Of a stretch of 64,000 nucleotides of DNA, positions 1,497-62,961 are shown in pieces. The notes below the pieces were generated by a model that saw only the letters and a list, made by a program, of their open reading frames with translations, ran no database searches and was not told the DNA's origin. The DNA is from an uncultured virus (IMG/VR IMGVR_UViG_3300021185_004515). Lineage: Duplodnaviria; Heunggongvirae; Uroviricota; Caudoviricetes. The translations under genes and the position numbers were made by a program. Within the stretch, counting starts at the first letter, position 1, and every line of letters begins with the position of its first letter. The stretch lies in the IMG/VR virus record IMGVR_UViG_3300021185_004515; one strand, 5' to 3'.

Positions 1497-2087
1497 TCAC
1501 CGTCTTTTTCTATACATCAAGGTTGCTCCGACCAATACCGCAGCACCAAGAGCAAATTTTTGTCCAGAAAGGGGTGAATCTCCTGTGTCTTCTGCATTAA
1601 ACCAACCAAAATATTTGTTATACCATGCTTCGGAACCAGCGTTATTGGCTTCCGTAGGTGCGGTGGTTACAGTGTTGCTGGAGGATTCGTCAGAGGTTCG
1701 GCATCCAAGTGTAGGCCAAAGAGGATTACAAACACGCTGATTATACATTTTGCGAGCCCCACTTCCTGGTGCAACATTGGTAATATAATTCCAATCTTGT
1801 GGGTCAGCACCTCCAGAGGGCATGATTCCAAAAATTCCTGCAATTCCACTCATAGTCCAAGGCATACCACCTGCACCATAGGGCTGATAAGCATTACCAT
1901 CTTGGTCTAAAGTTGTATAATTGATTTGCCACGCTGTTCCAGCGGCAGTGGTGGCTCCTTTGGAAAGTGGATTTCCAGCAGAGTCATAGCCAATAATTTC
2001 TTCTTTGGCACCTGTGGTTGGATTAGTAGTATAGCAACGACGAGAATAGAGGTCGCCAGGGTCGCAGGATATATTGTAGCCAGTCAT
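1497..2087 (-). CDS. Tail-anchored hypothetical virion protein
   Basis: C-terminal TM followed by RKRR; WFNAE motif; TATA at 2110. Confidence 0.75.
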   Translation of the reverse strand: MTGYNISCDPGDLYSRRCYTTNPTTGAKEEIIGYDSAGNPLSKGATTAAGTAWQINYTTLDQDGNAYQPYGAGGMPWTMSGIAGIFGIMPSGGADPQDWNYITNVAPGSGARKMYNQRVCNPLWPTLGCRTSDESSSNTVTTAPTEANNAGSEAWYNKYFGWFNAEDTGDSPLSGQKFALGAAVLVGATLMYRKRR

Positions 2088-2119
2088 ACAGATACTTTCT
2101 CTGTGCTGTTATTTAAGGA

Positions 2120-3139
2120 TTACGCCTTGCGACTAAACCACCATGCAGCACCAATCGCTAATGATGCGGCAATAACAGCGGCAGTTTGCTTGTTAAATCG
2201 GGATTCTGTGGAACCTTCTTCCATAGAGTCTACAAATGATTGAGCATCCATAGTCATTTCTGGGAAATCTTCTCGGTCATAGTAACCATCATAATCTTGT
2301 TCATCTACACGGGTCTGAAATTCTGCGATTGCATCAACCACATCTTCAGAAAAGTTGTAAGGGAAAGCAATTTCAAATTCTCCATTAGAGGATTCGGAAA
2401 TAACGACCACACCGTCTCGGATGTCATCATCCATCACATCAGTAAGATAGTTCTTGATTGGTTCATCAACAACGAACACCTCACGCCCATTAGAATCTTC
2501 AAAAACATTTTGCACAGATTCTGTGACTTCGGAAAATTCGGCTTCCATTTCTTGGTCTTTTAGACCTTCTTCCATCGGAATAGCGACTTCTTCAGGTGAG
2601 TTGGAGGTAATAGCCTTCTTGAGTCGGCTCAGAGCGGAACCACGCATATAGGTGTTAGCGGCTTCAGGAGTTCCATCATTTCCACGGCCATATTGAGATG
2701 CGTCATTTTCGGCACGACCAGCCCAGACATAATCATGGGCAGGAAGAGAAGGAGCAGCGTCAGTAGCGGAAACAATTTCTCCGCCTGTGTGTTGCCCAAT
2801 AATTCTGCCATCACCTACGGGGTCAGTAGATGGCTCAGGAACCAAAAGTTCTGCGCCCGAGTCTGCTGGTTCAGAGGCTTCAGCCGCAAAAGCCGAAGGA
2901 GTTGCTTCTTCAGCAGCATAAACTGGGAGAGTTTTGCCCAATTGTTCACAAATAGTAGCGGCATCTTGGGCTCCAATTAGACTCTGACATTTGTGTTCTT
3001 TGCCAGTTTCTGGGTTGTTGTAGTAACCAATAACTTGATAACGGCTGCCTCCACCCTTGGTTTTGGTAGCAATAATATCATGAACCTCACACATAACTTT
3101 CTTTTTGAGTCCTGTGGAGTAAATTTCTCTGCTGACCAT
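2120..3139 (-). CDS. Tail-anchored modular protein with Cren7-like N-terminal domain
   Basis: N-term VIGYYNNPETGKEHK; YAAE/FAAE/MEAE motifs; acidic linkers; C-terminal TM; TATA at 3162. Confidence 0.75.
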   Translation of the reverse strand: MVSREIYSTGLKKKVMCEVHDIIATKTKGGGSRYQVIGYYNNPETGKEHKCQSLIGAQDAATICEQLGKTLPVYAAEEATPSAFAAEASEPADSGAELLVPEPSTDPVGDGRIIGQHTGGEIVSATDAAPSLPAHDYVWAGRAENDASQYGRGNDGTPEAANTYMRGSALSRLKKAITSNSPEEVAIPMEEGLKDQEMEAEFSEVTESVQNVFEDSNGREVFVVDEPIKNYLTDVMDDDIRDGVVVISESSNGEFEIAFPYNFSEDVVDAIAEFQTRVDEQDYDGYYDREDFPEMTMDAQSFVDSMEEGSTESRFNKQTAAVIAASLAIGAAWWFSRKA

Positions 3140-3176
3140 ACTTACACTTCCGTATTCCGACTATTTAGGTGTTTGC

Positions 3177-4176: not shown

Positions 4177-5244
4177 TCAGTTGTCGCCCAGAAGCATACC
4201 AAGAGCCGATGCAGCAATAACAGAGCCAGCAGATAGTAGCATGAATCCAAGTCCAATCTTAGCACCAGTTTCAACAGGCTTTGCCAGTTCAACTTGGTCA
4301 GCCCACATGATGTCATTTGGTGGAGAGGAAGCAGCACTCATTCCAGAATCGTCTTCCCACTGAACAATAGCGTTAGTGAGTGATTCAGCGTGGTGTGCAA
4401 CCTTAGCGTCACCGAGTCCACGGAAGCCCACAGGTTTCTGTGACTTAGCGTTGCTTCGGCGGTCTTGACGGAGAGAGCGTCCCACATCAACATTAGAAAT
4501 AAATTCACCCTTAGCGTTGCGAGCAACATAGCGTTGGTTACCGTTCAACTTGTATCGGTTACGCTTACCGTATTTCTGGGCTTCAAATGTTTCCGCAGCC
4601 TTGGTCTTACTGTAACCCTTTCGCATTTTCTGTCCCATTTTCTTGTTATATTGAGAAGAACTCATAGGTCCGTAGACTTGAGGAGAGTATCCAATACGAC
4701 CGTAGCCGTTGAATCCACCCATGTTGGTGTTAATGAAAACATGGAATTTGTTAGCGGAACCACTGCGTTCAGTTAAATAAACTGGGTCGCCTTGGAAACG
4801 AACACCTGGATTTGCCGAACGAATAGCAGCCTTAACAGCCTCAATATCTTGGCGGCCAGGTGGTAGTGATGCCATGGCTTCAAAGGTTTCAGCGTGTTTG
4901 TGGCCGTTAGCGTCACCCATACCACGCTTTCCTGCCTTAGCATAGCGAGTTGGTTTTGGTTCACGCTTGTCAGCAGCGAGACTGCGTCCCATGTCTACAT
5001 TGGAAATAAACTTTCCTTTGCTGTCACGAGCGACATATCGGTAATTACCATTTAGTTTGTATCGGTTTCGGGTTCCATATTCGGCATTTTTTTCCATAGT
5101 TTCACTTCCATAGGTTTCAGCATCCATGGTTTTAGTGCAAGAAGCACAGAAAATGGATTCAGCATTTAGGTCATGTGAATTACAACCTGCACAATGCTGG
5201 TGAGAATCAGATTCTGCACTCTTGCATCCACAGGTGTTACACAT
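4177..5244 (-). CDS. Modular nucleic-acid-binding polyprotein: Cys-rich peptides, two basic repeats, WGR domain, C-terminal TM
   Basis: Duplicated RYKLNGNxRYVARxxKGxFISNVDxGRSL unit; WGR-like SANKF...YGRIG...KKMGQKMRKGY; at least 8 AE/SE motifs at boundaries; TATA at 5267. Confidence 0.8.
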   Translation of the reverse strand: MCNTCGCKSAESDSHQHCAGCNSHDLNAESIFCASCTKTMDAETYGSETMEKNAEYGTRNRYKLNGNYRYVARDSKGKFISNVDMGRSLAADKREPKPTRYAKAGKRGMGDANGHKHAETFEAMASLPPGRQDIEAVKAAIRSANPGVRFQGDPVYLTERSGSANKFHVFINTNMGGFNGYGRIGYSPQVYGPMSSSQYNKKMGQKMRKGYSKTKAAETFEAQKYGKRNRYKLNGNQRYVARNAKGEFISNVDVGRSLRQDRRSNAKSQKPVGFRGLGDAKVAHHAESLTNAIVQWEDDSGMSAASSPPNDIMWADQVELAKPVETGAKIGLGFMLLSAGSVIAASALGMLLGDN

Positions 5245-5287: not shown

Positions 5288-6712
5288 TTACTGTCCCTCA
5301 GCCGCCCAATAATCTTGTCCCCACTTGTAATTGAGCAATAATTCTGTGACGAAAACGGCTCGTTTAGAACCAGTTATTTGGATAGGGTCGGCGTTCATCG
5401 TGGCTTCTAACAAACCGAGTTTAGCAGCCGCATACAATCCTTCCAATAGTTCTGGGTCGGCGGAAGAAACATGACTCTGAAGGGAAGTCACAAAACTTGA
5501 ATCTGTCAATCGCATAGGCAAGTCATCATCGTTAATCATAGAATTGATGAAGTCAATAGTTTGTTCAGGCGTGTAGGTTATACTTACTGAAATTTCTGGG
5601 ATGGCTTCAGGGTCAAGTTCCATAAAATCAGCGATGTCAATTTTCTCTACAAAGCCCTTGGTGAATTTGCCTGAACTATCTCGGTTCTGAATTCTCCAAG
5701 ATTTGGTTTCCGCAGAAAAATTCTGAGATAGTCTGTCATTAGTGACTTGAGCGACTCGTGACCAATCATCCATGGTATCAGGTTGAAGTTCCCGACTAAC
5801 CTTGGCTAATTCCAGTGCTGGAGCAAAGTCCTTATTCATTCCAGCGGTTCGTAGTTTCCTACTTCCCTTATCGTAAAAATTAAGGTTGTTAGCAACTACT
5901 GAGGCTCCGCCCACGACCTTCCCAAAAACATTACAGCCATAGTGCATGGTTCTTCCTAAGACGCTCCATCCATTTTTGCTGCAATTACGGTAAAAATTAT
6001 CTGCTTCAGCATTGAAGGATTCAGCCTTACAACAAATTGTTGCATCCGAACTATTATCATAAACACTATCGCATTCACCACATTGATATTCATTTACCAT
6101 TGTTCCCGCTTGTCTTCCTTTTGCAATTCTGTGGATAACATCAACAGCGAATGTTTCAGCATTCAAAGAAGTTCCGCTAAATCCGCCACATTTAGGGCAA
6201 GAACCATCTTCAGTTCCTTCCTTCCAAGCATCCCATTCATAATTACATTTATTACAATTCCAATTATCTTCTGCATTAAAATCTTCTTCTCTCTGTAAAT
6301 GCTCTATGGCTCGGTCAATTAAATTGTGTCGGGCGGATTGCTTATCAGGCCCTTCTCCATAACTGCTGATACGAGAGCGTCCATTGTTGGGTAATGCAAA
6401 CATTACATCTCCAAAGACAATGAATTCTCCATCTCGTTCCATAGTGTGTCCAATGTCGGTCATGATGACTTCGTAATCATTAGTGTTATCATAACCATAA
6501 TCATCGGGCCACGAAGGGCCAGATTCTCCTCTGGATTCAAAGGTTTTGCTTTCGCTGGCAAAAATTGGGTTGGCTTGAAGCCATTCATCAACAAACCATT
6601 TAGGAATCTCTATCTCCCCGTGGATAATATCTTCAAAATATTGGTCTACATCCAGAGGTTCAGAGGCCATATATTCTGCATAAGCATACCCTAATGATTT
6701 CATTCGTCCCAT
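5288..6712 (-). CDS. Modular AE-motif polyprotein with zinc ribbons
   Basis: CxxC pairs, RDSSGKF motif; FASE, FNAE, LNAE, FNAE, FSAE, WAAE; GAGGTGA SD. Confidence 0.75.
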   Translation of the reverse strand: MGRMKSLGYAYAEYMASEPLDVDQYFEDIIHGEIEIPKWFVDEWLQANPIFASESKTFESRGESGPSWPDDYGYDNTNDYEVIMTDIGHTMERDGEFIVFGDVMFALPNNGRSRISSYGEGPDKQSARHNLIDRAIEHLQREEDFNAEDNWNCNKCNYEWDAWKEGTEDGSCPKCGGFSGTSLNAETFAVDVIHRIAKGRQAGTMVNEYQCGECDSVYDNSSDATICCKAESFNAEADNFYRNCSKNGWSVLGRTMHYGCNVFGKVVGGASVVANNLNFYDKGSRKLRTAGMNKDFAPALELAKVSRELQPDTMDDWSRVAQVTNDRLSQNFSAETKSWRIQNRDSSGKFTKGFVEKIDIADFMELDPEAIPEISVSITYTPEQTIDFINSMINDDDLPMRLTDSSFVTSLQSHVSSADPELLEGLYAAAKLGLLEATMNADPIQITGSKRAVFVTELLLNYKWGQDYWAAEGQ

Positions 6713-6905: not shown

Positions 6906-8264
6906 TCAACCATAGAGGTTGTCTGTGGTTTCAGTAATGCCTCGTTCCTTTTTAGACATCTTCCTTTGATTCAGCAGGATTTCCAAGGCTTGCTCCATGT
7001 GGGTCTGAAGAATTTTAGTTTTGGATTCATCAAAATCAGAATCTTCAAAAGCCAGCATGAAAGCATTTTGGACTAATTCTTGGAGGTAAGCCCCAGAAAA
7101 ATTATCCGTTCGCTTGACAATCTGTTTCAAGTTAATCTTGGCTTGGAATGGTTCTAAATACTTTTCCAAAATCTCCTTTCGGGCTTCTGGTTTAGGATAA
7201 CCGAACTCAATTCTGCTATCAAATCTTCCAGGTCGGTCAGCCAAAGCCCAATCCAAATGTTGAGGGTAGTTAGTGGTGGCTAAAGTGATAACTCCTGTGT
7301 TGCGTTCTACACCCGAAAGAGCATTCAAAAATTCTCCAAGTAGTGGGTGGTCGTGAACTTCTCGGCGGTCTAATCCTCCGAGTGTGTCAATATCCTCAAT
7401 AATAACCAGCGTGGGTGCTAAATGGCGAGCCATTTTATAGAGTCGTGTGATTTGTCCTTCTTGTTTGATAGCATCACGAGAGGCGTAAATGGTGGTAATA
7501 TTGGTATTATTCATGACCACATTACAACACAAGGTTTTTCCTGTTCCTGGTGGGCCTGAAATCAAAACACCACGAGATGCACGAAGATTTTTAGCACGAT
7601 AAACTTCCATGTGTGGAACAAAGTTAATGATGTGGCGGTTCAATAATTCTGTGGAATCATCATCTACGATAATGTCTTGCCATCCTGCGCCTGGGACATC
7701 TAAGAAACGGAAATCTGCGGTGAATTTAGAGCCTTTCAGTAGACCTTTTGTGTTGAAGTGCAGTTGAACCTTGTCCCACAATTCTGTGTAGCGGTTCCCG
7801 TATTTTGTGTTGGTTTCAAAGTAGAATTTAATGTCAATTTCATACTGGTCATACGGCCAAAAAGAAACTACCAATGGGTGTGAATCTTCTCGGTGTTGCA
7901 AAAAGAGCGAGAGTTTGTAAGGAATCTTAAATTTTTCTCCGTTGAAGACTTCTTCGTTCCAAATAGGCGGGGTTTCAGCATTTCCATACTTGTGATTCTC
8001 TACCTTAATGGTTTCATACTCATCTTCTAAAATCTGCATCAAGGAATACGCCCACATGATATATTCTCTTCCAGAATAATCTCGGTGTTTAACTTCTAAA
8101 TTGTTGATGTCTGTTTGAAAGAACTCCGAAATAGAGGCATCCATCTGGTCAGTCTTTTCAATTGAATCGCTAAGATACTGCAACATATCTTTGAGTGGTT
8201 CGGTGGGTATTGAAATAGGCCCCATTGGAGAGGCAATTTCAAGATTCGTAGGCATTGCGGTCAT
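6906..8264 (-). CDS. AAA+ ATPase, classical (CDC48/PAN/FtsH-like) clade
   Basis: Walker A GPPGTGKT, Walker B IIEDID, TTN sensor 1, SRH ALADRPGRFD, FSGA lid. Confidence 0.92.
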   Translation of the reverse strand: MTAMPTNLEIASPMGPISIPTEPLKDMLQYLSDSIEKTDQMDASISEFFQTDINNLEVKHRDYSGREYIMWAYSLMQILEDEYETIKVENHKYGNAETPPIWNEEVFNGEKFKIPYKLSLFLQHREDSHPLVVSFWPYDQYEIDIKFYFETNTKYGNRYTELWDKVQLHFNTKGLLKGSKFTADFRFLDVPGAGWQDIIVDDDSTELLNRHIINFVPHMEVYRAKNLRASRGVLISGPPGTGKTLCCNVVMNNTNITTIYASRDAIKQEGQITRLYKMARHLAPTLVIIEDIDTLGGLDRREVHDHPLLGEFLNALSGVERNTGVITLATTNYPQHLDWALADRPGRFDSRIEFGYPKPEARKEILEKYLEPFQAKINLKQIVKRTDNFSGAYLQELVQNAFMLAFEDSDFDESKTKILQTHMEQALEILLNQRKMSKKERGITETTDNLYG

Positions 8265-11755: not shown

Positions 11756-12406
11756 TCACATTCCTTGAGCGGAAAGGAGTGAACGCTTATACCAGTCCAC
11801 ATTTCCTGGGTTGATGGAGATACCCATTTCCAACAACTTGTTGGCGATGAGTGCATCAGGTCCGTCGTAAAGTGTGTATTTGGTGAATGCGTAGTGGTCT
11901 GCACCAGTAGCCGCTCCCCAAGAACCTGCGTTGAAAGCAGTGTAAAGGATGTCCCAAACTTGTCCTGGCAACACATATACATCAGGGTATAGGTTGAAGG
12001 AAGGCTGGAAATCAAGGGAACGAGGGTAAGGGCTTGCGCTACCTGGGATACCTTGGTTTGCAACATTGTCAGGGTCAAGGAAGTAGTCCGTGGTGTTGAT
12101 ACGAACTTGCACATAGGCACGAGGACCGAGTGTTCCGTTTCCTGGGGCGAAATCACCGAGTTGTCCTCGGTAATCTGTTGAGACAGTAGCCGCTGTTGAA
12201 GTTGCTGGCAAAGTTGGTGTGCAAGCGATGTCTTCAATGACAACGAATTCTGTGGCGGTTGTTTCTGCTGGCTTGGTAATGTTGTTACCGAATCCACCGA
12301 TAAAGATAGATACTGCTCGTCCTGCTTGCGCTGCGACGAAGTTGTTTGCGGTTACACCATTTGGCCCGAGGCCGTTCCATTCATAAATTTGACTTCTCAT
12401 ACTCAT
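11756..12406 (-). CDS. Putative major capsid protein A (single jelly-roll-like)
   Basis: Paralogue of the neighbouring gene with long identical blocks; eight alternating-hydrophobic strands incl. LYPDVYVLPGQV; C-ending codon bias suggests high expression. Confidence 0.6.
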   Translation of the reverse strand: MSMRSQIYEWNGLGPNGVTANNFVAAQAGRAVSIFIGGFGNNITKPAETTATEFVVIEDIACTPTLPATSTAATVSTDYRGQLGDFAPGNGTLGPRAYVQVRINTTDYFLDPDNVANQGIPGSASPYPRSLDFQPSFNLYPDVYVLPGQVWDILYTAFNAGSWGAATGADHYAFTKYTLYDGPDALIANKLLEMGISINPGNVDWYKRSLLSAQGM

Positions 12407-12451
12407 AATAATCACTTTCCATAGTTAGTTTTCCTCAAAGGAATTCCGAAC

Positions 12452-13108
12452 TCAGACTCCTCCGTTAGTTGGGGCCATTGCAGCACGGGTTTGTTGCTCA
12501 ATGAGGGAACGCTTATACCAATCAACATTGTTTGGATTGATGGTGACACCAAGTTCCAAAAGTTTGTTTGCGATGAGTGCATCTGGGCCATCATAAAGAG
12601 TGTATTTCACGAAAGCAGCGACAACTTGAGTAGTTGTGCCGTTCATGGCTTCGTTGATGCTGTAAAGAATCTGGAAAACTTGACCAGGAAGAACATAAAC
12701 ATCTGGGTAGAGGTCAAAAGACTTCAAGAGGTTGTCCTTGGTGTAGGTCAAAACGGTTCCTGCAACTGCAACAGAGGAAGGAGAACCACGAGGGTAAGGA
12801 CTTGCAAGACCTGGGATACCACGCTGACGGGTAACATCTGGGTTCTGGAAGTAATCAGTGGTGTTGATTCGGATTTGGACTGAGCCACCGAGCCAAGGAG
12901 AACAAGCGATGTCCTCAATAACGATAAACTGCGTTGCAGTTGTTTCGGCTGGCTTAGTGATGTTATTACCGTATCCGCCGATAAAAATATCAATTTCTTG
13001 TTGGCTTGGAACGGTAACAGGGATGTCACTTGTTGTTCTTCGTAGGCTTGAAGTTTGACCCGTAGGTGCGAGGTTACTCCATTCATATACTTGGCTTCTC
13101 ATACTCAT
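12452..13108 (-). CDS. Putative major capsid protein B (single jelly-roll-like)
   Basis: Shares MSMRSQ, GNNITKPAETTAT, VIEDIAC, RINTTDYF, KYTLYDGPDALIANKLLE, NVDWYKRSL with gene A; TATA at 13165. Confidence 0.6.
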   Translation of the reverse strand: MSMRSQVYEWSNLAPTGQTSSLRRTTSDIPVTVPSQQEIDIFIGGYGNNITKPAETTATQFIVIEDIACSPWLGGSVQIRINTTDYFQNPDVTRQRGIPGLASPYPRGSPSSVAVAGTVLTYTKDNLLKSFDLYPDVYVLPGQVFQILYSINEAMNGTTTQVVAAFVKYTLYDGPDALIANKLLELGVTINPNNVDWYKRSLIEQQTRAAMAPTNGGV

Positions 13109-14849: not shown

Positions 14850-15944
14850 TTAAATTTGTCCCATTACGGCTCCAGAACCTTCTGCGCTAACCATGTGACG
14901 GCCAACGACTCCAGTTTTTGCACCTTCGGCGTAATAGAATGTGACTCCACGGCCAGAATTTCCCGCAGAGGGCATAACATGGCTGAGGTAAGTATCTGAC
15001 TCAGCAGATGTTCCTGGTTTGACATAGGAACCGAACTCATCATAGATACTACCTGTTTGAGTAGCGTAAGCATTTCCTGAAACACTCATTGTTGCGGTTT
15101 CAGCACCGTATGAGACAGGAGGTTGAGTGGATGCGCCACCTGGGTAACGAGATGCGACGAAAGAATTGCGGCCACCAAGACCTTCTGCAACTGCTCCTCC
15201 AACATCTACTGAGTTGATGTAAGCACCGAGTTCATCTTCCACAGGGGAATTAGTAGTTGAAGATTCTGGGTTTCCTCCGCCATAGGCTTGTTCAACTCCA
15301 CCAGTAGGTGAAACTTCTTCTGCGCCAAGGTTAAAATCGGCTCCGTGTCCGAGAGGTGAGCGAACCATATGAGAATACATTGGCTCTTTGCCCATGCCAC
15401 GCTGCTTCATAGATAGTGTAGCCGCAACGAATGGCTCTTGGTCACCAGCAAATTCTCCTGCGGGGGTTGTTCCTGCATCAGATTCCACAGGTTGCATTTC
15501 TCCGCCTTCTGCATTCTTGATGTCAGAGTAGGAATATCCTGCACCTTCTGGGGTGATACCTTGTTGTCCGATAACACTTCCACTACCAGATTGAGGTAGT
15601 GATTCAGTAGCCATCATTAGTGGAGCAAAGTTTCGGAAGAAAGGCACATTAAGTAGTGTCAGGGTTTGTCCCAATCCGTATGCGATTAGAACAATACCGC
15701 CTGTCTTGGAAGCAGCAGCAAAATCAGCACTCATTTTCTGGGAGCGAACCAATAGTGCGCTACCGATTCCTAAAGTGGTTAGAACACGAAGTCCATTACC
15801 GACTACTCGGCCAGCCTTGTAAAAAGGAATCATTGTCAGGGCAATCCCTGTTACATTCGCCACAATTACACCCGCAACTCCCATATAGGTGCTACGGTCT
15901 GTGAGGGTGGACATGGTATCGTCTACTACATTTGCGGTCATCAT
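14850..15944 (-). CDS. Three-TM protein with AE-delimited low-complexity modules
   Basis: N-terminal TMs; KNAE, LGAE, YGAE, TSAE, YYAE, VSAE; TATA at 15968. Confidence 0.75.
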   Translation of the reverse strand: MMTANVVDDTMSTLTDRSTYMGVAGVIVANVTGIALTMIPFYKAGRVVGNGLRVLTTLGIGSALLVRSQKMSADFAAASKTGGIVLIAYGLGQTLTLLNVPFFRNFAPLMMATESLPQSGSGSVIGQQGITPEGAGYSYSDIKNAEGGEMQPVESDAGTTPAGEFAGDQEPFVAATLSMKQRGMGKEPMYSHMVRSPLGHGADFNLGAEEVSPTGGVEQAYGGGNPESSTTNSPVEDELGAYINSVDVGGAVAEGLGGRNSFVASRYPGGASTQPPVSYGAETATMSVSGNAYATQTGSIYDEFGSYVKPGTSAESDTYLSHVMPSAGNSGRGVTFYYAEGAKTGVVGRHMVSAEGSGAVMGQI

Positions 15945-20515: not shown

Positions 20516-21547
20516 TTAACCCCTATTTCTGCCTATCAAATATCCGCCAAGGGCTGCAATTCCTGTGAATATGATTGTCATACCTGTGAATTTGAGCCCC
20601 ATTCTCTGGAGTTTATCAATCAATTCAGTAGGGTGTTTCATGGTTTCATCATGATTTTCTGCACCAAACATCATGCTGATGCGGGCAGGGATTACCATTT
20701 CAGTATTGCAATCGTTACAACAACGGCCATCAAATAATGGTTGAGCATTGTTTCCATAGCGTCCATAATCGGCTCCACAAAAACAACATCCATCATCTAC
20801 ATCATCGGAGGTCTCTGCACCAAATTCTTCTTTGTGGCACTCATCACAAAATGCTCCATCACAACAGTCCTTTGAACATCTATGGGAACTACAAACCGTA
20901 TTACTACACCCTTCGCACCCTCTATTACAACTGCCACAAAGTAAAACATCACATAGGGCGCAATTTCTAAAATCATCATCCCCCTCATAATCTTGACCAC
21001 ACTCATAACAACTTACCATTTCAACTTCGGAGGTCTCGGCATCCATACGAGTCAATTCGCCATATCTAATTTCTAAATTACGATAATTCTTCAAATCTTG
21101 TTCTGAAGGTTCTTCCATATCTTCAATCTCATACAGTTGTGCCAAAATTGTATCTTCTTCGGCAGCCATCCCGTATTCTTGAAACATTTCTTTTGCTTTT
21201 GAATTTATAGATTTTTTATCGTAAATGCTTACCAAAGAACTGCCGACCCAATATAAACCATCGTCACCAGAATCACCAGCCTGACCGAACTCTTCAGTAA
21301 TCAATTCTTCATCTGACATATCTTTGGCAGATTCTGGGTAAATGTTTGAAGGGTAGTGTTCTGAATCACCATCTCTCACTTGAAAAGTAACTAAGTAAAA
21401 TGTTTCTCCGACACGATGCTTTTTCATTCTGCTCTTTTTCTCTTCGGACCTCAACATCATGTTTTGATGTCCTGAATAGTTGATGGATGCGTGGTCAAAA
21501 TCTCCATGAATAGCACTTGATTGAGCCAATTCATTAGGTGTGAACAT
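20516..21547 (-). CDS. Tail-anchored modular polyprotein with zinc-finger modules
   Basis: LRSE, MAAE, MDAE, FGAE, FGAE separate modules; multi-CxxC module and a CCFCG...GRCCNDCN module; C-terminal TM. Confidence 0.78.
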   Translation of the reverse strand: MFTPNELAQSSAIHGDFDHASINYSGHQNMMLRSEEKKSRMKKHRVGETFYLVTFQVRDGDSEHYPSNIYPESAKDMSDEELITEEFGQAGDSGDDGLYWVGSSLVSIYDKKSINSKAKEMFQEYGMAAEEDTILAQLYEIEDMEEPSEQDLKNYRNLEIRYGELTRMDAETSEVEMVSCYECGQDYEGDDDFRNCALCDVLLCGSCNRGCEGCSNTVCSSHRCSKDCCDGAFCDECHKEEFGAETSDDVDDGCCFCGADYGRYGNNAQPLFDGRCCNDCNTEMVIPARISMMFGAENHDETMKHPTELIDKLQRMGLKFTGMTIIFTGIAALGGYLIGRNRG

Positions 21548-30240: not shown

Positions 30241-30254
30241 GATAATCATTCCGT

Positions 30255-42900: not shown

Positions 42901-44225
42901 CCATCAGCATTACAGATTTTAACAGGCTTTACCAAACGCTTCTTAGCGACACCTTCGGGAATAATTGCCAATCCTGCATCGTTAAATTTAGGCCAAGTTT
43001 CTGGGTCTGATAGAATAGTATTGGCTGGGACATCTACGAAATAATGTTGCAAGAGTAACTTCTTGAACGATTCTGGTTGAAGTGCCAACTTAGCAAATGT
43101 GGTGTTGGGTTGTAGGAACTTGAAATCATACAAGTAGGCTCCTGACATTTGTTGGTTAGGGATTTGAGAGGCATTCCTACCTGCATAGGTGTGGTTTCCT
43201 GTGGAACCTTTCGGTGTCTTCCAAGGAGTGAATCTCCATGATTCCCACAAATCGTTAATTTCTGGGCGAGCAGCGTTGCCATAAATAATGGAATATTCTT
43301 GTCCTGCGGGCAACATAGTTGGGCTGTAAATGTTATCGGAGGAGTTATTGGCACTGAAAAGTTCTCCTGTGGTCATGGCGACATAATCTTGTGGTGGGAC
43401 AATCCTCATAGAAGTATTGAACCCATAAGAGTTGGATAGCAAAGTTGCCGCACACTCAATAACTGTGGTTTTTCCAGTTCCAGGAACACCAGATAGACGG
43501 CAAGTTGAATCTTTCATCAACCAAGCGGCCATGAATACTTCCAAGTGTCGGTAATCGTCAAAAGCGAAAACCTTACCCAGAGCCGATGATAACGAGCGAA
43601 CACGCTTGAGAGTATCTCCCAGTTGTTTCCTCTTAGAGCCTGAAGAGTAGGTGGAGATAAATGATTCCAAAATCTCATCTAAGGAAGCACCCATGATACC
43701 ATCGCTAAACTCTCCTGCGGAAGCCAAAGAACCACGAACGATTTCTCCGTAGCGGAAAGCAGCCTCTCCGATTTCGGTAGTGAGTCGGTCATCATCAGCA
43801 GGAATTCCCAAAATTTCAGTGCAAAATCGTGCGGTGATGTTTGTCCCTGCTGTGTCAGAAATAACCATATAGGTAGGAGTGTTGTTTTCATTGTTAAGAA
43901 TTTCAATGCGTCCAATATCATATCCAATATCTTGGATAGTTACCTGTTCGTCAAAAGACTGGCTTCGTTGCTCAAAAATCTGTTCCATTTGATTAACGGC
44001 ATTGGCTCCGACCATAGAAACTGCATCCATAGCAGTTGCAGAGGTGGGTGAGGCTGAAGGGTCAGTTGGTCCAGGTGGTGTGTCACGACCTGCGGCTTTA
44101 TCTTGTTCTTTCAACAACTCTTTCATACCTGCGTTAGCAGCCATGGAATCCTCGCCCATAATTTTATCTGAAAGTGGTTTTTCTGCTCCGTCTGCTCCTG
44201 CGGTCAATTGTTCTTCGTCGGTCAT
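39936..44225 (-). CDS. Giant MoxR/RavA-type AAA+ ATPase
   Basis: Walker A GVPGTGKT, variant Walker B FFNEANR, AFTDRI arginine finger, lid AFLRGKSYVSREDI...PYTVAHRI. Confidence 0.85.
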   Translation of the reverse strand: MTDEEQLTAGADGAEKPLSDKIMGEDSMAANAGMKELLKEQDKAAGRDTPPGPTDPSASPTSATAMDAVSMVGANAVNQMEQIFEQRSQSFDEQVTIQDIGYDIGRIEILNNENNTPTYMVISDTAGTNITARFCTEILGIPADDDRLTTEIGEAAFRYGEIVRGSLASAGEFSDGIMGASLDEILESFISTYSSGSKRKQLGDTLKRVRSLSSALGKVFAFDDYRHLEVFMAAWLMKDSTCRLSGVPGTGKTTVIECAATLLSNSYGFNTSMRIVPPQDYVAMTTGELFSANNSSDNIYSPTMLPAGQEYSIIYGNAARPEINDLWESWRFTPWKTPKGSTGNHTYAGRNASQIPNQQMSGAYLYDFKFLQPNTTFAKLALQPESFKKLLLQHYFVDVPANTILSDPETWPKFNDAGLAIIPEGVAKKRLVKPVKICNADGTSVLFPNQVMLSSGTEGTEDLIMKLAHPEMNGIAVRSLFDDISSHMAANTQASGRSVVQQYIAQSGLSGMWTDAGRNEGYWLREFLHHTCFDARATPGSLQWKSLSSEMLGEIGIAKVDFEKRADEVLYGMEIRETQSFDPAKGANVNTFDFEPVPRPIVTQPVKFFNEANRSKPGMEDAILGLIAERKVEYRGKEFDSPNFVAWMDTNPHQKGNDLAFTDRIDMEILFKSVSMGGRYNILSNRAGRPVEQLIKNLTMSNAMAPLRFYEIRDIWSMIEDDATGISMVQNGGSYDGYRDVSAISVLFSQAYRTREHILPVGNNKQYSWISNPHEAPLVDFSTTTNTSSGNDGTEAAVLSQGTMAFAGNQPQMSTADPLRGNDVSAQLPAIFTRVLGFRFTNSIIKLAKSFAFLRGKSYVSREDIVDAIPYTVAHRIGRSKEGLTDVNGNTKGIGKAMSKDLAYNSEQDFLREFLVRGYINRDVDIGQGSGASLLEMLDSFYERCVSILQSSDYAHEYETAVLKVMQDQMIGNANLSTSITPVHWHIATMVSESERMGNTTLRSYGENNTQGYPEMYEDFMQRISNPVSGNMGESCLNDMYATRYAIANNGNLFTDDKARLLGLCDEEISIYAAGLSGGKAAYFNSEINTAAVGTNLANMGANANLTLPTYGDTLGAWAAVTNSKSDMSAIMSGVGKRLSGLSITSSHYANDSAHIALSNQQVKLIGRIKDGILGGDSPDYGRFHTSLTAFTNKMSAKISSDNGRWIFDAGSQSGNVEVSFSQFMQVCSELIKLDEENPSYNGSRVFTMAGQNESIDWGQADASLMACFQLPHSELSDFISGDITQEVGFAGDTREVTRPARSLVRDNNINMWADDENDFLRLWVCLRSVPAGEAGSGEPLENNEYMTFILSASVTSNFGQYNPMEGAAIVNTPGEITGTINFLPINDPRCYSSNSVGQNGLGDSGNITKSDRQEYLGILGDALQPRRR

Positions 44226-48692: not shown

Positions 48693-49484
48693 TCAGTATT
48701 GTGGTCCATTATTAGAATTGAATGATTCCAAGAACCAGTTATCCCATTGTTTCCTACCTTGTGGCTGTCGTGGCTTTTGTTGTTGGGAATCCTTTTCTGC
48801 TCTTTTTGTTTCACGAGATTCGGCTCGCTTGATAGCAGACTCCGCTTCGTTAAGTTGTTTCTCAATTTGACCAATTTGAGAATTGATGGCATCCATTTTA
48901 GATTTGTAATAATACATGGTTCCAACCACACCGACTAACATTCCGCCAACGAATCCGACAGCCATGTTGCCTTTACCAACAGCAAATCCCGCCGAAGCGA
49001 GAGGTGATGAAGCATTTTGCGCTTGCTTAACCACTGGAGGTTCAGTGGATGAAGTTTCTCCACCCAATCCTCGTCGGCCAATTTCAGCATGGATGCTGGT
49101 TAAATCAGTCTTGAACTTAGAAAATTCTTCTGCTGACTTAATATCTGAGTCAGCCATTGAACCCATCAAATCCATAATCTCTGAATCGGATAAATCTCCT
49201 AATTTAATGTTTTTCTTAACTGAAATCTCTTCAGCAGCGAAAACACGGTTATCTTCCGTAGCCATCCATGAAGCGGAAACTTTGGGCTCTTCAATAATAC
49301 AGTCAGTAATCTTGCGGAATCCTCTGATTCCTTTACCTCGTTGTCCCAAAATGTATTTTCCTGGGCCTGTTTGGTGAGCAAAAGAGACAAAATCACCAAT
49401 AGAAATCTCATCATCTGAAACAAGAACATCTTGAGTTCCAGAGTTCTTAACTCCTTTTTGGTAACGGCGAATAAACCAGACCAT
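48693..49484 (-). CDS. Single-TM coiled-coil protein
   Basis: FAAE; TM then coiled coil; TATA at 49507. Confidence 0.75.
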   Translation of the reverse strand: MVWFIRRYQKGVKNSGTQDVLVSDDEISIGDFVSFAHQTGPGKYILGQRGKGIRGFRKITDCIIEEPKVSASWMATEDNRVFAAEEISVKKNIKLGDLSDSEIMDLMGSMADSDIKSAEEFSKFKTDLTSIHAEIGRRGLGGETSSTEPPVVKQAQNASSPLASAGFAVGKGNMAVGFVGGMLVGVVGTMYYYKSKMDAINSQIGQIEKQLNEAESAIKRAESRETKRAEKDSQQQKPRQPQGRKQWDNWFLESFNSNNGPQY

Positions 49485-50597: not shown

Positions 50598-50777
50598 TTA
50601 TCCTATTTGAATGTTCTGTCCAACTGAATGCACTTGCCGCCTTAAATATATGGCTTCAGCAATTTCCTTAGCATCTGTATTGAGTTTGCCTGAAATGTAA
50701 AATGAGTAGCCTTGGGACTGACGAATTTCAATAATGTGCCTAAAATCATAGACCCATGAGGGAATATCAACGCTCAT
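50598..50777 (-). CDS. Small hypothetical protein
   Basis: Fills gap, GGTGG SD. Confidence 0.45.
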   Translation of the reverse strand: MSVDIPSWVYDFRHIIEIRQSQGYSFYISGKLNTDAKEIAEAIYLRRQVHSVGQNIQIG

Positions 50778-51800: not shown

Positions 51801-51944
51801 CTAATCGTTTTCGCTATTTAAGTTTTGCGAAACAAACCTGGTGATTACAGGATTACGGATGGCAATAAACCACCAAACAAAATAGAGGCTTGCTAATGAT
51901 AATGTGGTTAGCCAAGCCAAAATAAACCAAATAATTAGTTCCAA
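51801..51944 (-). CDS. 47-aa single-TM protein (not in ORF track)
   Basis: TTG start after GGAGTGA; ELIIWFILAWLTTLSLASLYFVWWFIAIR; directly downstream of the ArsA/GET3 gene. Confidence 0.55.
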   Translation of the reverse strand: MELIIWFILAWLTTLSLASLYFVWWFIAIRNPVITRFVSQNLNSEND

Positions 51945-53122
51945 CTTAGTTTCACTCCTGCGGAGACTTTACGACGAGTGGGCTTTCCTGCGTCGGCGGG
52001 AAGTGGGACTTGATAATGAGGCGAACTGCCACCCATGTTAAAGTCCTCCCAACGATACAAAGATTCTTGCTCATTGATTTTCCACTTGGCTGAGTCCAAA
52101 AATGGGACTGAGATGGTGACTGACTTATCACCTGTTATCAATGATTTTTTGGGAGCAAAAGAGATTCCTTTTGAATTCCAGAGAATTTTAGCGTAATCAA
52201 CCAACTTGGCACCACGAGGTTCGTATGGCAAACGAGAAACGCCTACTAATCGGATGTTGTGAGAGGCACAGATTTCTTGATATTTGATAAGATAAGGTTG
52301 CTGAATGTCGTATTCGCACTTGATTAACTGAGTCGCAGGATTGGGATTATCTCCTTCAGCGGCTTCCCAAGTAGTGGGTCCGAAATTAGGGATGATATTA
52401 TTTACCACTATGTTGTGAACCTTAATTTTCTGAGACTCTAAAAATCGGATAGTTCGGTAGCATTCTTGAAGTCCTGCTTCGGAGGCAATAGATACTAAAT
52501 TAACACTGACCCACTCGCTACGAAGTAAGGCTTTCAGACGGTCTATTTTATCACAAACCTCTTCCAATAAATTGGCTAATTTTTCTGCGGTTTTGTCACG
52601 GCGGAACAAAACGCCTTTGAAATTCTCAATCTTGGCTTTCATACGCAAAATCTTGAGCAAAAAGGTTTTAATATAGTCGGGGGCTGTTAAAGCACGAAGC
52701 GTGTGTCCTGTGGGGGCTGTATCAAATACCACTACATCATAGTCACAAGATTGGGTTAATCGCAGAATCTCTTCTAAAGCAAAGTATTCATCCATTCCTG
52801 GAAATCCTGCCATGTCAGAAAACAGTTCGGAATCCAAACCAGGCAACATTTTAGAGAATGTTTCAGCGGTGGCTTGATTCAAAGTGTCCGTAAAATTAAG
52901 AGCCATGCGTTCTGCATCTATGTTTTTAGCCCAAAAATTAGGAGCAATTTGAACTTCAGTCGGACCGACGGCTACTCCTAATGTGTCATCAGTGCTATGG
53001 GCTGGGTCAGAAGATACCAGAATTGTTCGGTAGCCTTGAGAGGCTAAATGTTGGGCTGATGCAGCGGAAACGGTAGACTTACCGACACCACCCTTGCCTG
53101 TATAAAGTAACAGTTGAGCCAT
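51935..53122 (-). CDS. ArsA/GET3 (TRC40)-family ATPase
   Basis: Deviant Walker A GKGGVGKST, SSDPAHS, FPGMDE, DTAPTGHT; single ATPase domain; no ars genes nearby. Confidence 0.92.
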   Translation of the reverse strand: MAQLLLYTGKGGVGKSTVSAASAQHLASQGYRTILVSSDPAHSTDDTLGVAVGPTEVQIAPNFWAKNIDAERMALNFTDTLNQATAETFSKMLPGLDSELFSDMAGFPGMDEYFALEEILRLTQSCDYDVVVFDTAPTGHTLRALTAPDYIKTFLLKILRMKAKIENFKGVLFRRDKTAEKLANLLEEVCDKIDRLKALLRSEWVSVNLVSIASEAGLQECYRTIRFLESQKIKVHNIVVNNIIPNFGPTTWEAAEGDNPNPATQLIKCEYDIQQPYLIKYQEICASHNIRLVGVSRLPYEPRGAKLVDYAKILWNSKGISFAPKKSLITGDKSVTISVPFLDSAKWKINEQESLYRWEDFNMGGSSPHYQVPLPADAGKPTRRKVSAGVKLSWN

Positions 53123-56494: not shown

Positions 56495-56977
56495 TTAACT
56501 GGTGGCTGTCCATGATATTCTCGCACCTGTGGGAAAATTCTCAATTGGCTCTACCAAAGCATTAGCGATAAAATAGGTAATATCCCAATCAGTTCCTGGT
56601 GGAATTTCTATTTGCCAACCTGTGGGGTCCATCGGTTGGTCGCTCAAACTGATGGAATAAGGTGCGGCAGTTCCTGATAATCCGACACCTGGGCGGCCAT
56701 CTGGGTCCAAGAAATATGATGTGGTGCCGACAACAAAATTGACATAACCTCCTGGGACCCAATCGTTTCCAATCCCAAATAATCCTGGGGTGGAGCCAAA
56801 GTATTGTAACACGACGAATTCAGTGGCTTTGGTGCGGAGACGGTTCTTGATAGTGGCAGTTCCGATTTTAGAATAAAAGACTGATTGTGGGGTTTTCTCT
56901 AAATCTTCTAATTGTTTAGGAGGGATGTTTCCTAAATCTGCGACTTCCCACTGAAACCCTTGTCTGCGGATAGCCAT
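56495..56977 (-). CDS. Distant paralogue of the capsid protein beta-barrel (minor capsid/penton candidate)
   Basis: TKATEFVV, TTSYFLDPD, GLSGTAAPY, PPGTDWDITY align with capsid protein A. Confidence 0.7.
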   Translation of the reverse strand: MAIRRQGFQWEVADLGNIPPKQLEDLEKTPQSVFYSKIGTATIKNRLRTKATEFVVLQYFGSTPGLFGIGNDWVPGGYVNFVVGTTSYFLDPDGRPGVGLSGTAAPYSISLSDQPMDPTGWQIEIPPGTDWDITYFIANALVEPIENFPTGARISWTATS

Positions 56978-60370: not shown

Positions 60371-60807
60371 TGTATCACCCGTGGAGTTTTTTGACCGTAA
60401 TTGATGATGAATTCGTAGGCATAAATGGATTGGTATTCCCAATAATCTACCCACATTTTGTGTGCTTCGGGTGTCATAGGAAGGTATGTCCAATATACAT
60501 TATCATCAACAGAATATTTTTCAGAGTTAGGGCCTCCTCTGTTTGAACAATACTGCAATATATCATTAGTTTGTAACCAAGCACTCGCTTGTTCTATAAG
60601 CATTGATTCCTCTTCATCAGTAATGGGCAAACTAATATCGCCCAAATCTGCTGTTCTCTGGACATGGAAGAAAAATGGTAATTCTTGTCGGTCAGGCCAA
60701 TCTTCATAGGCTTCTTCCTGAATAAATCCTCCTACTCCAGAGAGGTTGATTCGGTAATTTGGAGGGAACTTTTTCATCCACTCAGGCAATAAATTGTAAT
60801 TATTCAT
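60367..60807 (-). CDS. Hypothetical protein
   Basis: Overlapping stop/start in operon. Confidence 0.65.
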   Translation of the reverse strand: MNNYNLLPEWMKKFPPNYRINLSGVGGFIQEEAYEDWPDRQELPFFFHVQRTADLGDISLPITDEEESMLIEQASAWLQTNDILQYCSNRGGPNSEKYSVDDNVYWTYLPMTPEAHKMWVDYWEYQSIYAYEFIINYGQKTPRVIQ

Positions 60808-61951
60808 CGTTAATCCCCCTATTCTTGGCCGAGATAGCGGTAGAAACTACGATTCCTACCGCAGTTAAGCCCACAATTCCTGCCACTAAACCTGTTGCGG
60901 TGAAAGATTTTTCGGGGGTGGGGTCTGGGGAGGGGGTTGTTTTTGCTTGCTTATCCTTGACACACTTGCCAAAAGTTCCAAGTATTCCTCGTTTATACCC
61001 TGCCTTGCACACACATTTACCTGCTTCTGGGTCATATTCTGAATGTGTATCGCTGTCGTAGCAATACTCACAGGGATTATCTGGGTCTTCTGCGACTGAG
61101 CCTTCCACATAATTTTGTGCCGTGGAATCCTTACATCCGATTTGTTGGAATCCTGTGGCTGTGGTGATGCGGTATTTTTTCCATGTTGTAGGAATTAGTG
61201 ATGGTTTTACAATGTATTCTTGAGTGGTAAGTCCTGTGGCTCTGTATCCTGCTTTCGCTATCCGTCCCTCATTATCTGACTTATCTGGTTGTGGAATATC
61301 TGACTTTCCTGCTTTTTCTTCCCATTCCCACTTGTGAAGAATTTTGGCATAGGGTGGGTTGGTATCGTATTCATTAGTGGGTTGTCCTTTGTAAGTCCAT
61401 TGTTCTACAATATATCCGCCTTCGGTATAGGTTGGGGCATAGATACAGGAACAATCTCCTTGAGTTTCTGCTACTGTTTGTAGGATTGGTGTTTCGTTCC
61501 AACTCTTGTTGAACTCCCAAACAGGGTTGCTGGTTTTGCAGGGACATCTTGAACTGGGCGATACGGGAGAATAATTGATGGCACTGGAGTCTCCACAGCC
61601 GTCTTCTACTCGGAAGTCATTCATCTTTTCTATGTAGTCTGCTCGGGCGGAATTGGCCTCAGATGTGGTGCTATACTCTCCAATTTTTCGGGCTGTATTA
61701 GAATCTATGGGGTTTCTACCGTCGGTGGTAGAACTGACACGGTATTTGATGGCTTGAGTATCAATCGTGGTAATTTTCATCACATAGATTGTTTCATCGT
61801 GAACTGAATTGCAAGCCAGAGATAGGTTGTCTATAACATCGTATTTGGTATTGCCGCTGGTGAATGTTTCCACACGCTTTTCTATTGTTTCAGCATTACG
61901 AGCCGTCTGAGCAAAATTAAGTTCGTAGGGATTGGATAATATGGTTCCCAT
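60800..61951 (-). CDS. Tail-anchored Cys-rich surface protein
   Basis: GCGDSSAINY, GCKDSTAQNY, EGF-like CVCKAGY; RNAE; C-terminal TM. Confidence 0.78.
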   Translation of the reverse strand: MGTILSNPYELNFAQTARNAETIEKRVETFTSGNTKYDVIDNLSLACNSVHDETIYVMKITTIDTQAIKYRVSSTTDGRNPIDSNTARKIGEYSTTSEANSARADYIEKMNDFRVEDGCGDSSAINYSPVSPSSRCPCKTSNPVWEFNKSWNETPILQTVAETQGDCSCIYAPTYTEGGYIVEQWTYKGQPTNEYDTNPPYAKILHKWEWEEKAGKSDIPQPDKSDNEGRIAKAGYRATGLTTQEYIVKPSLIPTTWKKYRITTATGFQQIGCKDSTAQNYVEGSVAEDPDNPCEYCYDSDTHSEYDPEAGKCVCKAGYKRGILGTFGKCVKDKQAKTTPSPDPTPEKSFTATGLVAGIVGLTAVGIVVSTAISAKNRGINDE

Positions 61952-62961
61952 TAAATTTTCCCTCCATAGATTGTGGCTCCTGCGGTAATCAAGACAATTG
62001 CTAATCCTGCGGCTACAAATCCGCCTGAGTTAGTGGTGGGTGTGGATTCATCATCGTCAGTGGTATTCTGGCAGTGGGTGTTGTCCCAATAGTGTGCGTC
62101 AGCGTTGTATTTAGAATTAGATTCATCGGTGCATGATGCGGTAAATGTTGGTGATTTCAACCACCACATTAGTTCGCCTGTGCCACCTGTTTGTTGATGA
62201 TATTTAGTGGCTTCTGCGATAGCCCATGAAAAATACTTAACAAAAATTTCTGTTCCGACATATCCTTGTGAGATACATTCTGATTCTGAAAACTGTGACT
62301 CATTGGCATCCACATAAAATATACATGGCATAGAAACTTTCCATTCTTGCTGGTCTGGTTCTATGACCGCTACTCCTTTCTTGAGAGCATCTGCTGACGA
62401 TGATACATCTAATCCAGCAGGTAGATTGGTGAGGTGTCCTTGTGAGTCCACTCTCCATCCTGAAGGCAAAGTGTGTGGTTGGTGTCCTTGATAGATGGTT
62501 AAATCGTATAATTTGTCTGAATTATCTATGACTTCATACGATTCTTCCCAAGTTTCCTTGCAAAACAATTTAGCATCCCGATATTCTTTGGGCTGGTCGT
62601 TGTAAAACAACTCTCCTGTGTAGGATTGAGAATTGGCTCCTGCACAAGTTCCTGTGGTGATAATGATGTTGTCAGGGTGTTCCCACCATTGGTCGTGAGT
62701 GTTTGATTGTCGTTGGAAGATAGCGGGTCGCTCAGATTCGGCGGCAAATGGGTTCTGATTTGGTCCTGCTATTTTAACCAAAGTTTGAGGTGGTATGCCG
62801 TTGCTAAATTTGGTCTGTGCCTGAACTGAACCATCTGGATTTTGAGTGAGAACATATCCGTCTGCCCAAGCAGCCAAAGATTTGGTTTCTCCTGAGTCCC
62901 GTGATTGCCACATATTTTGTGGCGGTAATGGAACACTATTGAAGGCCGAGCCTAACCACAT
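61951..62961 (-). CDS. Tail-anchored protein
   Basis: FAAE; SCTDESNSKYN repeat variant; C-terminal TM; TATA at 62984. Confidence 0.78.
   Translation of the reverse strand: MWLGSAFNSVPLPPQNMWQSRDSGETKSLAAWADGYVLTQNPDGSVQAQTKFSNGIPPQTLVKIAGPNQNPFAAESERPAIFQRQSNTHDQWWEHPDNIIITTGTCAGANSQSYTGELFYNDQPKEYRDAKLFCKETWEESYEVIDNSDKLYDLTIYQGHQPHTLPSGWRVDSQGHLTNLPAGLDVSSSADALKKGVAVIEPDQQEWKVSMPCIFYVDANESQFSESECISQGYVGTEIFVKYFSWAIAEATKYHQQTGGTGELMWWLKSPTFTASCTDESNSKYNADAHYWDNTHCQNTTDDDESTPTTNSGGFVAAGLAIVLITAGATIYGGKI

Follow-up and report, generated by a model that had tools for sequence, protein, structure and literature searches.

A recurrent x-A-E motif at module junctions in large viruses with archaeal-type genes: candidate sites of precursor processing

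We analysed a 64,000-nucleotide stretch of DNA from an uncultured virus (IMG/VR record IMGVR_UViG_3300021185_004515; the whole stretch is hereafter called the window) and found that a short protein motif, x-A-E, recurs at the junctions between small protein modules and between these modules and C-terminal membrane anchors. The motif is enriched in the window and in its three syntenic relatives, its Ala-Glu (AE) pair is conserved, and we put the probability that the junctions are proteolytic processing sites, and are cut, at roughly one half. A preliminary description of the window, made from its letters alone, had taken the motif as the mark of a genome-wide polyprotein system in which a maturation protease frees membrane-tethered cargo modules; the motif itself, its position and its link to membrane anchors are borne out below, and other parts of that description are amended.

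Enrichment and consensus of the motif

The ORF set of the window comprised 74 open reading frames (ORFs) of at least 50 amino acids, all of them on the minus strand and tightly packed. AE was the most over-represented dipeptide by z-score in these ORFs (161 occurrences against 107.4 expected), a count reached in none of 1000 shuffles, and the flanked forms [FYLMK].AE and AE[TS]F occurred 76 times against 23.0 expected and 8 times against 0.6, respectively. When residues around AE were counted without a preset pattern, Phe and Lys were in excess at P4 (20 and 19, each against 6.3) and Thr at P1' (27 against 10.4). A 12-residue position weight matrix (PWM), refined iteratively, gave the consensus E-T-[F/K/M/Y]-x-A-E-[T/S]-F-E-A-E, in which P4, P2 and P1 were strong (E 0.98, A 0.92) and P1' and P2' weaker. 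For use on the window the PWM was trained on three relatives alone, to avoid circularity; it called 38 sites against 5.49 expected (maximum of 12 in 200 shuffles), and stricter cuts of 10 and 12 gave 25 against 2.35 and 16 against 0.66.

The recurrence first reported is thus real and exceeds a composition-matched background: all five strings quoted in the preliminary description occur in the ORFs to which it assigned them, and the ORFs it named as densest hold 7, 7, 7, 4 + 12 and 7 AE pairs (Table 1). Its figure of about 25 motif-bearing ORFs was fair, as 44 of the 74 match the [FYLMK]-type expression (24 of them at least twice) and 20 hold a site with a PWM score of at least 8. PWM sites were absent from the large proteins and enzymes of the window, in keeping with the sparsity claimed for enzymes; capsid proteins, to which the claim also extended, were identified by no test. 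The supposedly frequent AE doublets were recovered in part: strict AE-x3-AE doublets are not significant in the window (2 against 0.7 expected), but a spacing of 5 between AE pairs occurs 30 times across four genomes against 4.6 expected, other spacings occurring 8-13 times. Codons at the sites track genome usage (GCA 11, GCT 13, GCC 8 and GCG 2; GAA 30 and GAG 4) and conservation is therefore at the protein level, as had been proposed; the same codon variation rules out a DNA-level repeat as the origin of the motif.

Distribution along the genomes and among relatives

Three IMG/VR contigs (G001, G002 and G003) are syntenic with the window at protein identities of 25-72%, and the motif is enriched in all four genomes, most strongly in G003 ([FYLMK].AE 119 against 45.6 expected). 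Rather than being genome-wide, as first described, it is concentrated in one block: positions 1-31 kb of the window hold 31 sites against 3.1 expected and positions 31-64 kb hold 7 against 2.7, and the central blocks of the three relatives hold 36 against 5.2, 27 against 5.1 and 37 against 4.5. The motif-rich side is bordered by a putative genome-packaging ATPase of HerA/FtsK type (Table 1). When marine metagenomes were scanned with the ATPase profile, 243 relatives were confirmed and 80 of their loci listed, and the lineage is common there; flanks were compared in the 42 metagenomic relatives whose sequence extends 9 kb or more beside the ATPase. The 10 kb downstream of it, on the side of the putative polyproteins, contained 306 motif matches against 34.4 expected (8.9-fold), an enrichment that was significant singly in 39 of the 42 loci, and the 10 kb upstream contained 30 against 33.0, with no enrichment. 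The motif is kept in relatives with only 55-60% ATPase identity.

These counts bear on the possibility that the motif is an artefact of composition or secondary structure. The AE dipeptide alone is slightly over-represented in phage T4 proteins too (ratio 1.20), but counts of the flanked motif match expectation in 50-kb samples of E. coli and of phage T4 (ratios 0.7-0.9), and here and in 39 of 42 relatives it is enriched 5-10-fold. A composition artefact is rejected by the shuffles, the cross-validated PWM, the flat E. coli and T4 controls and the 42-relative test, and the probability that we leave to an artefact of either sort is negligible.

Module boundaries and shuffling

In 117 alignments of window proteins with their orthologs, AE was kept at 26 of 47 motif sites (55%), against 35 of 154 other AE pairs (23%) and 5756 of 26529 dipeptides of all kinds, at flank identities of 0.38 and 0.37, a comparison that carries the mild caveat that the PWM had been trained on relatives. 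Of 330 internal ends of local homology among the four genomes, 15% lay within 5 residues of a site, against 6% at random. For ORF 4177-5244, 108 database homologs were reduced to 27 non-redundant ones, close orthologs being excluded, and these held 54 sites against 4.4 expected (maximum of 10 in 100 shuffles), with a site present in 23 of the 27 and AE[TS]F found 16 times against 0.28. The 27 proteins share modules in varying order with AE bounding each, so that the shuffling at AE junctions proposed earlier is seen across relatives; a 52-residue module of the ORF 21553-23349 protein, for its part, is 92% identical to a module of a differently built G003 protein. Breakpoints, defined as points where similarity stops though both proteins run on, fell within 3 residues of AE at 33% of N-terminal and 38% of C-terminal ends, against about 12% at random and with the peak on AE (the counts include redundant sequences).

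The placement of the motif at module boundaries was also visible in an AlphaFold model of ORF 4177-5244 (28-row alignment), in which the sole confident domain lies exactly between AE129 and AE218; the first of these sites scores below 8 with the PWM, which penalises its His at P3. A VIA structure search matched the domain to WGR folds (2ra8, Z 8.1; PARP3 WGR, Z 7.8; PARP1 WGR, Z 6.8-7.6), PF05406 was matched in homologs (P0048, P0110 and P0067 among them), and Pfam gave no WGR match at E<=1 on the ORF itself; judging by the modelled fold, residues ~130-216 are a WGR-like domain. Among the other module labels of the preliminary description, zinc ribbons found weak Pfam matches (E 0.02-0.1) and the DVNP-like and DUF6582-like labels none.

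Breakpoints that fall on the sites would also be expected if the junctions were simply inherited, AE-ending linkers ('...GVPxWYGSAE') having spread with mobile module cassettes while being functionless themselves, and persisting through shared descent or as an aid to recombination. Some sites are in fact the ends of a recurrent unit of about 35 residues, '...G-x-G-V-P-x-W-Y-G-(S)-A-E', which stands like a spacer ahead of many modules (window 21553-23349; homologs P0028-P0067). Elsewhere, however, the sequences that precede the motif are many and unrelated; conservation of AE is well above that of its flanks, the site codons vary like the rest of the genome, and the motif persists in relatives at 55-60% ATPase identity, all of which make a functionless junction very unlikely.

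Membrane anchors and a viral Get3 homolog

Tail-anchored-like proteins, called by a hydropathy rule, account for 11 of the 74 window ORFs, and a site is present in 7 of these 11 and in 13 of the remaining 63. Site density per 1000 residues is 3.75 in the tail-anchored-like proteins of the window against 1.48 in the others, and 3.96-5.07 against 1.23-1.74 in the three relatives, a gain of 2.5-4-fold in all four genomes that substantiates the link to C-terminal membrane anchors noted earlier. Among the 27 independent homologs of ORF 4177-5244, 12 have a hydrophobic helix at the C-terminus; the C-terminal anchor of ORF 21553-23349 was seen in the sequence and missed by the hydropathy scan. The last site usually lies 15-60 residues ahead of the anchor, between cargo and anchor.

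The window also encodes an ATPase of the Get3/ArsA family (ORF 51935-53122, Table 1), a family of targeting factors for tail-anchored proteins; it is conserved in all three relatives and has PDB matches to ArsA1 (8e-52), to the archaeal structures 3zq6 and 3ug6 and to human ASNA1. The viral Get3 homolog may insert the motif-bearing tail-anchored-like proteins.

A candidate processing enzyme

Pfam matched no protease family in the 74 window, 149 G001 and 122 G003 ORFs. A serine protease of assemblin or prohead-protease type had no Pfam or PHROG match in the window and none in the G001 and G003 ORFs, a search that remote homologs could escape and beside which two proteins were folded. When catalytic signatures (GDSG, GxSxG, DTG and others) were sought, the HExxH protein of ORF 38585-39898 was the only conserved match; alignments of nine other core proteins without assigned function showed no catalytic pattern. 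The HExxH protein has the sequence HEIGHxxxHP in the window, G001 and G002, and H84, E85, H88, H92, P93, N118, S121, D122 and N126 are invariant in an alignment of 16 sequences.

Its AlphaFold model (predicted local distance difference test, pLDDT, 87; predicted template modelling score, pTM, 0.87) had only zinc metallopeptidases as top matches in the VIA search of all representatives (ZMPSTE24, Z 7.5; BepA, 6.7; Ste24, 6.6; abylysin, 6.3), followed by selecase (5.9), BlaR1 (5.8) and PprI (5.6) and then by HtpX, Wss1 and thermolysin; these Z scores are moderate (5-7.5) yet mutually consistent. Foldseek with the model against the PDB returned nothing at E<=0.001, and the sequence profile against PDB sequences nothing relevant. 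In an atlas look-up with residues 1-170, 23 of the 30 nearest clusters belonged to PF13203 (DUF2201_N, a putative metallopeptidase; score 0.93), and the PF13203 Pfam model matched none of three orthologs at E<=10, the one zincin family that Pfam gave for them being Peptidase_M78, weakly (E 0.076), in the window protein. Fold and motif together make ORF 38585-39898 a candidate metallopeptidase of zincin fold and a putative processing enzyme. All 54 metagenomic loci whose upstream flank reaches 6 kb or more contain it, and HExxH is present in each of the 54 full-length copies; its gene adjoins that of a MoxR-like AAA+ protein (Table 1), a pairing that we take to be typical of the DUF2201_N family. 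A complex prediction of the zincin with an AE-flanked WGR module scored 0.00 and, having been made without control runs, carries no weight either way. The maturation protease postulated in the preliminary description thus has a candidate in the window, but one outside the T4 gp21/phiKZ class and absent from G003.

Processing and its alternatives

In the reading that we favour, each precursor would string together small modules that fold on their own (WGR, zinc ribbons and basic segments), and many precursors would end in a single C-terminal membrane helix that is possibly inserted by the viral Get3 homolog. A protease would read P4 and P2-P1 (x-A-E) and cut at or beside the Glu, parting the modules from each other and from the anchor; the best candidate in the window for this enzyme would be the zincin, paired with the MoxR-like ATPase. 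Because each module would carry its own junction, modules could be exchanged between precursors, which in the proposed model accounts for the shuffling across relatives. Motif anatomy fits a protease site best, with P4, P2 and P1 dominating and a near-invariant Glu followed by Ser or Thr; the conserved sites, the exposure at a domain edge, the junction between cargo and anchor and the absence from enzymes of the same block likewise fit processing best, and the presence of a junction on every module speaks for separation more than for a single targeting tag. The parts of the scheme are not equally secure. The zincin is a good candidate for the enzyme acting at the motif, yet not a necessary partner of it, and its assignment is tentative; the full model, in which Get3 tail-anchors in a membrane the x-A-E-joined strings of dozens of small modules, nucleic-acid-binding and other, the zincin and MoxR-like ATPase release the modules and the uniform junction allows free module swapping, is rather unlikely to hold as a whole.

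Several observations weigh against processing, or against the zincin as its agent. G003 has the strongest motif of the four genomes and lacks the zincin: at the syntenic position it is without a whole 14-kb block (window 32842-46579, comprising two ~400-residue paralogs, a 1088-residue protein, the zincin, the MoxR-like giant and a 783-residue protein), the homolog of 46627 coming straight after the ATPase; the zincin profile found no match in G003 (best six-frame E 0.42), nor did Pfam find a protease in its 122 scanned ORFs. Zincin and motif are both present in all 54 informative metagenomic loci, and G003, the lone exception, counts against a link between them. Zincins usually select on P1', a poor fit to a motif dominated by P2-P1. 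ORFs ending at AE are not in excess (5 against 2.95 within the last 2 residues, P 0.18; 9 against 8.86 within the last 4); starts reading 'MAE' number 8 against 2.95 (P 0.011, uncorrected). The enzyme-rich arms of the relatives show no avoidance of the motif and are mildly enriched (17 against 8.7, 26 against 8.5 and 22 against 6.3). The linker placement that AlphaFold was expected to reveal holds at the two edges of the WGR-like domain, but the remainder of the ORF 4177-5244 model has pLDDT <50, so that the other sites lack model support; both capsid-like paralogs (11756-13108), moreover, carry NITKPAETTAT near residue 50, within a conserved and probably folded region.

The retention of the motif in G003 without the zincin, and the lack of an excess of ORFs ending at AE, suit a serious rival, that of a short linear motif that stays uncleaved: a docking peptide on each module would bind one shared partner (a capsid or scaffold protein, a packaging factor or a chaperone, for instance the AAA ATPase), and the modular proteins would be recruited intact into the particle or to the membrane. 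Enrichment, conservation, boundary position and exposure beside a folded domain suit a binding motif equally well. A single tag would suffice for docking, however, and yet sites flank nearly every module, often as the doublets five residues apart described above; the last site typically falls between cargo and membrane anchor, and a P4/P2/P1 pattern with a near-invariant acidic residue would be typical of protease sites. We regard intact recruitment as a real if lesser possibility.

Cleavage could also be the work of a host protease or of an unrecognised viral one, with the zincin/MoxR pair serving assembly, remodelling or the like. G003, again, is as this would predict; the zincin lies on the motif-poor side among large structural-looking proteins, and the Pfam scans of the window, G001 and G003 ORFs gave no protease. 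The zincin is otherwise universal, however, with its catalytic residues intact, and no host enzyme can be named; another enzyme is in our view unlikely. Processing at the x-A-E junctions, with the zincin as its candidate agent, is thus retained as the preferred reading at the roughly even probability given at the outset.

Other features of the window and the lineage

Features of the window are collected in Table 1. A core protein at 23352-24215 has an N-terminal transmembrane helix that in the window, G001 and G002, and not in G003, is directly followed by 'F-x-A-D' (FAAD or FGAD), which may be an Asp variant of the motif. The multi-copy family of about 220 residues has 4-5 paralogs per genome (in the window at 11756-13108 and 56495-56977), and its domain is also carried by a 946-residue protein (53617-56457; phmmer 2e-8). 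This family may be the capsid protein, the sole lead to a capsid being a weak atlas match to the PM2 coat protein P2 (0.78).

Table 1. Positions of the motif-bearing proteins, sites and other genes of the window discussed in the text.
Feature	Position	Strand	Evidence
355-residue modular protein, 7 AE: N-terminal Cys-rich part, basic module, WGR-like domain, second basic module, C-terminal transmembrane helix (tail-anchored type)	4177..5244	-	
Site KAA217-E218/TFEAQ, directly after the WGR-like domain	4591..4596	-	PWM 22.0
WGR-like domain, residues ~130-216 (model ~128-216)	4597..4857	-	AlphaFold pLDDT 86-97
Site KHA128-E129/TFEAM, directly before the WGR-like domain	4858..4863	-	
474-residue modular protein, zinc-ribbon-like modules, 7 AE; CKAESFNAE doublet at 6005-6025	5288..6712	-	
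Classic-clade AAA ATPase (AAA + AAA_lid_3), core gene inside the motif-rich block	6906..8264	-	Pfam
Two paralogs (216 and 218 residues) of a conserved multi-copy capsid-like family; 58-72% identity to the best matches in the relatives	11756..13108	-	
364-residue protein, N-terminal transmembrane region, 7 AE in a Gly/Ser-rich tail	14850..15944	-	
343-residue Cys-rich modular protein, C-terminal transmembrane helix, 4 AE; sites MDAET, FGAET, FGAEN	20516..21547	-	
598-residue modular protein, 12 AE, repeated '...VPxWYGSAE' units, C-terminal hydrophobic anchor	21553..23349	-	
514-residue modular protein, 7 AE; FGAETFEAD at 27789-27794, KNAESFAAE doublet at 27453-27473	26952..28496	-	PWM 22.1 (FGAETFEAD)
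284-residue proline-rich protein; site GGDPxFEAE invariant in 4/4 genomes	29395..30249	-	
HerA/FtsK-type putative genome-packaging ATPase; border of motif-rich and motif-poor sides	31555..32793	-	DUF87; PDB HerA matches
437-residue candidate zinc metallopeptidase (zincin)	38585..39898	-	HExxH, AlphaFold fold
HEIGH (HExxH) motif of the candidate zincin	39635..39649	-	
1429-residue MoxR-like AAA+ protein adjoining the zincin	39936..44225	-	PF17863 AAA_lid_2 E 9.5e-7; PF07726 AAA_3 E 0.0039
263-residue core protein; VFAAE after the N-terminal domain kept in 3/4 genomes, VFSAE in G003	48693..49484	-	
Get3/ArsA-family ATPase	51935..53122	-	PF02374 E 1e-57

Few window ORFs could be named by Pfam and PHROGs, those named including a DNA ligase fragment and two GT2 glycosyltransferases; no terminase or HK97 family was detected in the window, which has the HerA/FtsK-like packaging ATPase instead. 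In G001 the counterpart of the window is the central one-strand block, at about 38-95 kb; inverted terminal repeats were found in two of the three relatives, which measure 160 and 166 kb. Outside the window-equivalent, G001 encodes PolD (DP2 and DP1), TBP, TFIIB/TFB, PCNA and an MCM-like protein, as well as XPF, an archaeal-type Holliday-junction resolvase, PolX, ribonucleotide reductase and three C5 methylases, and the gene set of G003 resembles this replication and transcription set. The lineage is therefore one of large (~160-kb) linear double-stranded DNA viruses with archaeal-type replication and transcription genes. A phage collection searched with the window ATPase gave no match; a genome collection gave three contigs of the lineage (L034, L035 and L036), all binned in bacterial metagenome-assembled genomes, whose labels (Rickettsiales and Acidiferrobacteraceae) probably reflect mis-binning. 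Listings and abstracts in the literature contained no description of the lineage or the motif, though one may exist.

Some further proteins were observed. G003 carries a Cu/Zn superoxide dismutase as well as a tRNA synthetase domain of class I, Glu/Gln type (L025:11400-12065 and L029:755-2569). The protein at window 63448-63972 (G001 L008:18653-20000) is the best conserved seen between the genomes (76-89% identity) and has relatives that contain bacterial thrombospondin type-3 (TSP3) repeats. A 124-residue core protein at 50767-51141 has invariant 'D-x-DD' and 'SSSG-GLH' motifs, which presumably resemble those of primase-polymerases of the archaeo-eukaryotic primase (AEP) type.

Significance and comparison with known systems

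Even if uncut, the motif is a conserved signal of the whole lineage (243 relatives, with 39 of the 42 that have enough flank singly enriched), usable to find and annotate modular proteins in otherwise unannotatable genomes. If the junctions are cut, they would be plug-in points for module exchange, would provide a DUF2201-like zincin and its MoxR-like partner with a first substrate that can be tested, and would give a rationale for a viral Get3. Motif-directed processing of precursors is known in large double-stranded DNA viruses, and the chances are about even that we see it here in an undescribed lineage with a module-shuffling twist; were the full model true, it would be, to our knowledge, the first case of polyprotein processing in such a virus, with a new substrate logic for DUF2201-like peptidases.

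The strong Get3-family match and the 11 tail-anchored-like ORFs among 74 recall the GET/TRC pathway (Get3/TRC40/ArsA1), from which the present system differs in that its Get3 is virus-encoded and that none of the partners Get1/2, Get4/5 and Sgt2 turned up, no dedicated search having been made for them. The zincin shares with DUF2201_N (PF13203) the HExxH zincin core, the neighbouring MoxR-like ATPase and the nearest atlas clusters; unlike that family, it has no PF13203 match at E up to 10, and its C-terminal two thirds are beta-rich and helical with no recognised VWA domain. We know of no substrate for DUF2201_N.

T4 gp21 and phiKZ gp175 are prohead proteases of the same kind as gp245 of phage SPN3US. 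The nearest documented precedent for the proposed processing is this giant-phage enzyme, SPN3US gp245, which cuts behind A-X-E and prefers Ser at P1'; known phage cleavages mostly take off N-terminal propeptides (PMC10052503). As in that type of processing, the window motif is a short consensus that would place Glu at P1, a small residue close to it and Ser or Thr at P1'; it, too, recurs within single proteins and is spread over many, which in the phages are particle proteins (PMC10052503). Its register differs, being x-A-E and not A-X-E, with an aromatic residue or Lys at P4 and not Val, and its sites would part strings of shuffled modules where the phage sites mostly serve to trim propeptides. 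Unlike the genomes of prohead-protease phages, the window yielded no detectable assemblin-type protease, HK97-type capsid or terminase, and its packaging ATPase is of HerA/FtsK type.

In African swine fever virus (ASFV), pp220 and pp62 are cut at Gly-Gly-X by pS273R, and core proteins of adenoviruses and poxviruses are processed as well. If its junctions are cut, the present lineage would resemble these viruses in that a large double-stranded DNA virus cuts precursors associated with a membrane at a short, repeated motif and so obtains several small internal proteins. It differs from ASFV in that the motif is AE and not GG or AG, in its archaeal-type genes, and in that no cysteine protease of the pS273R clan was found in Pfam scans of the window, G001 and G003. 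Where ASFV has two large polyproteins, this lineage would have small precursors by the dozen, their modules shuffled and their anchors C-terminal, and cleavage at their junctions would extend short-motif precursor processing, as in giant phages, ASFV, adenoviruses and poxviruses, to a large virus with archaeal-type machinery.

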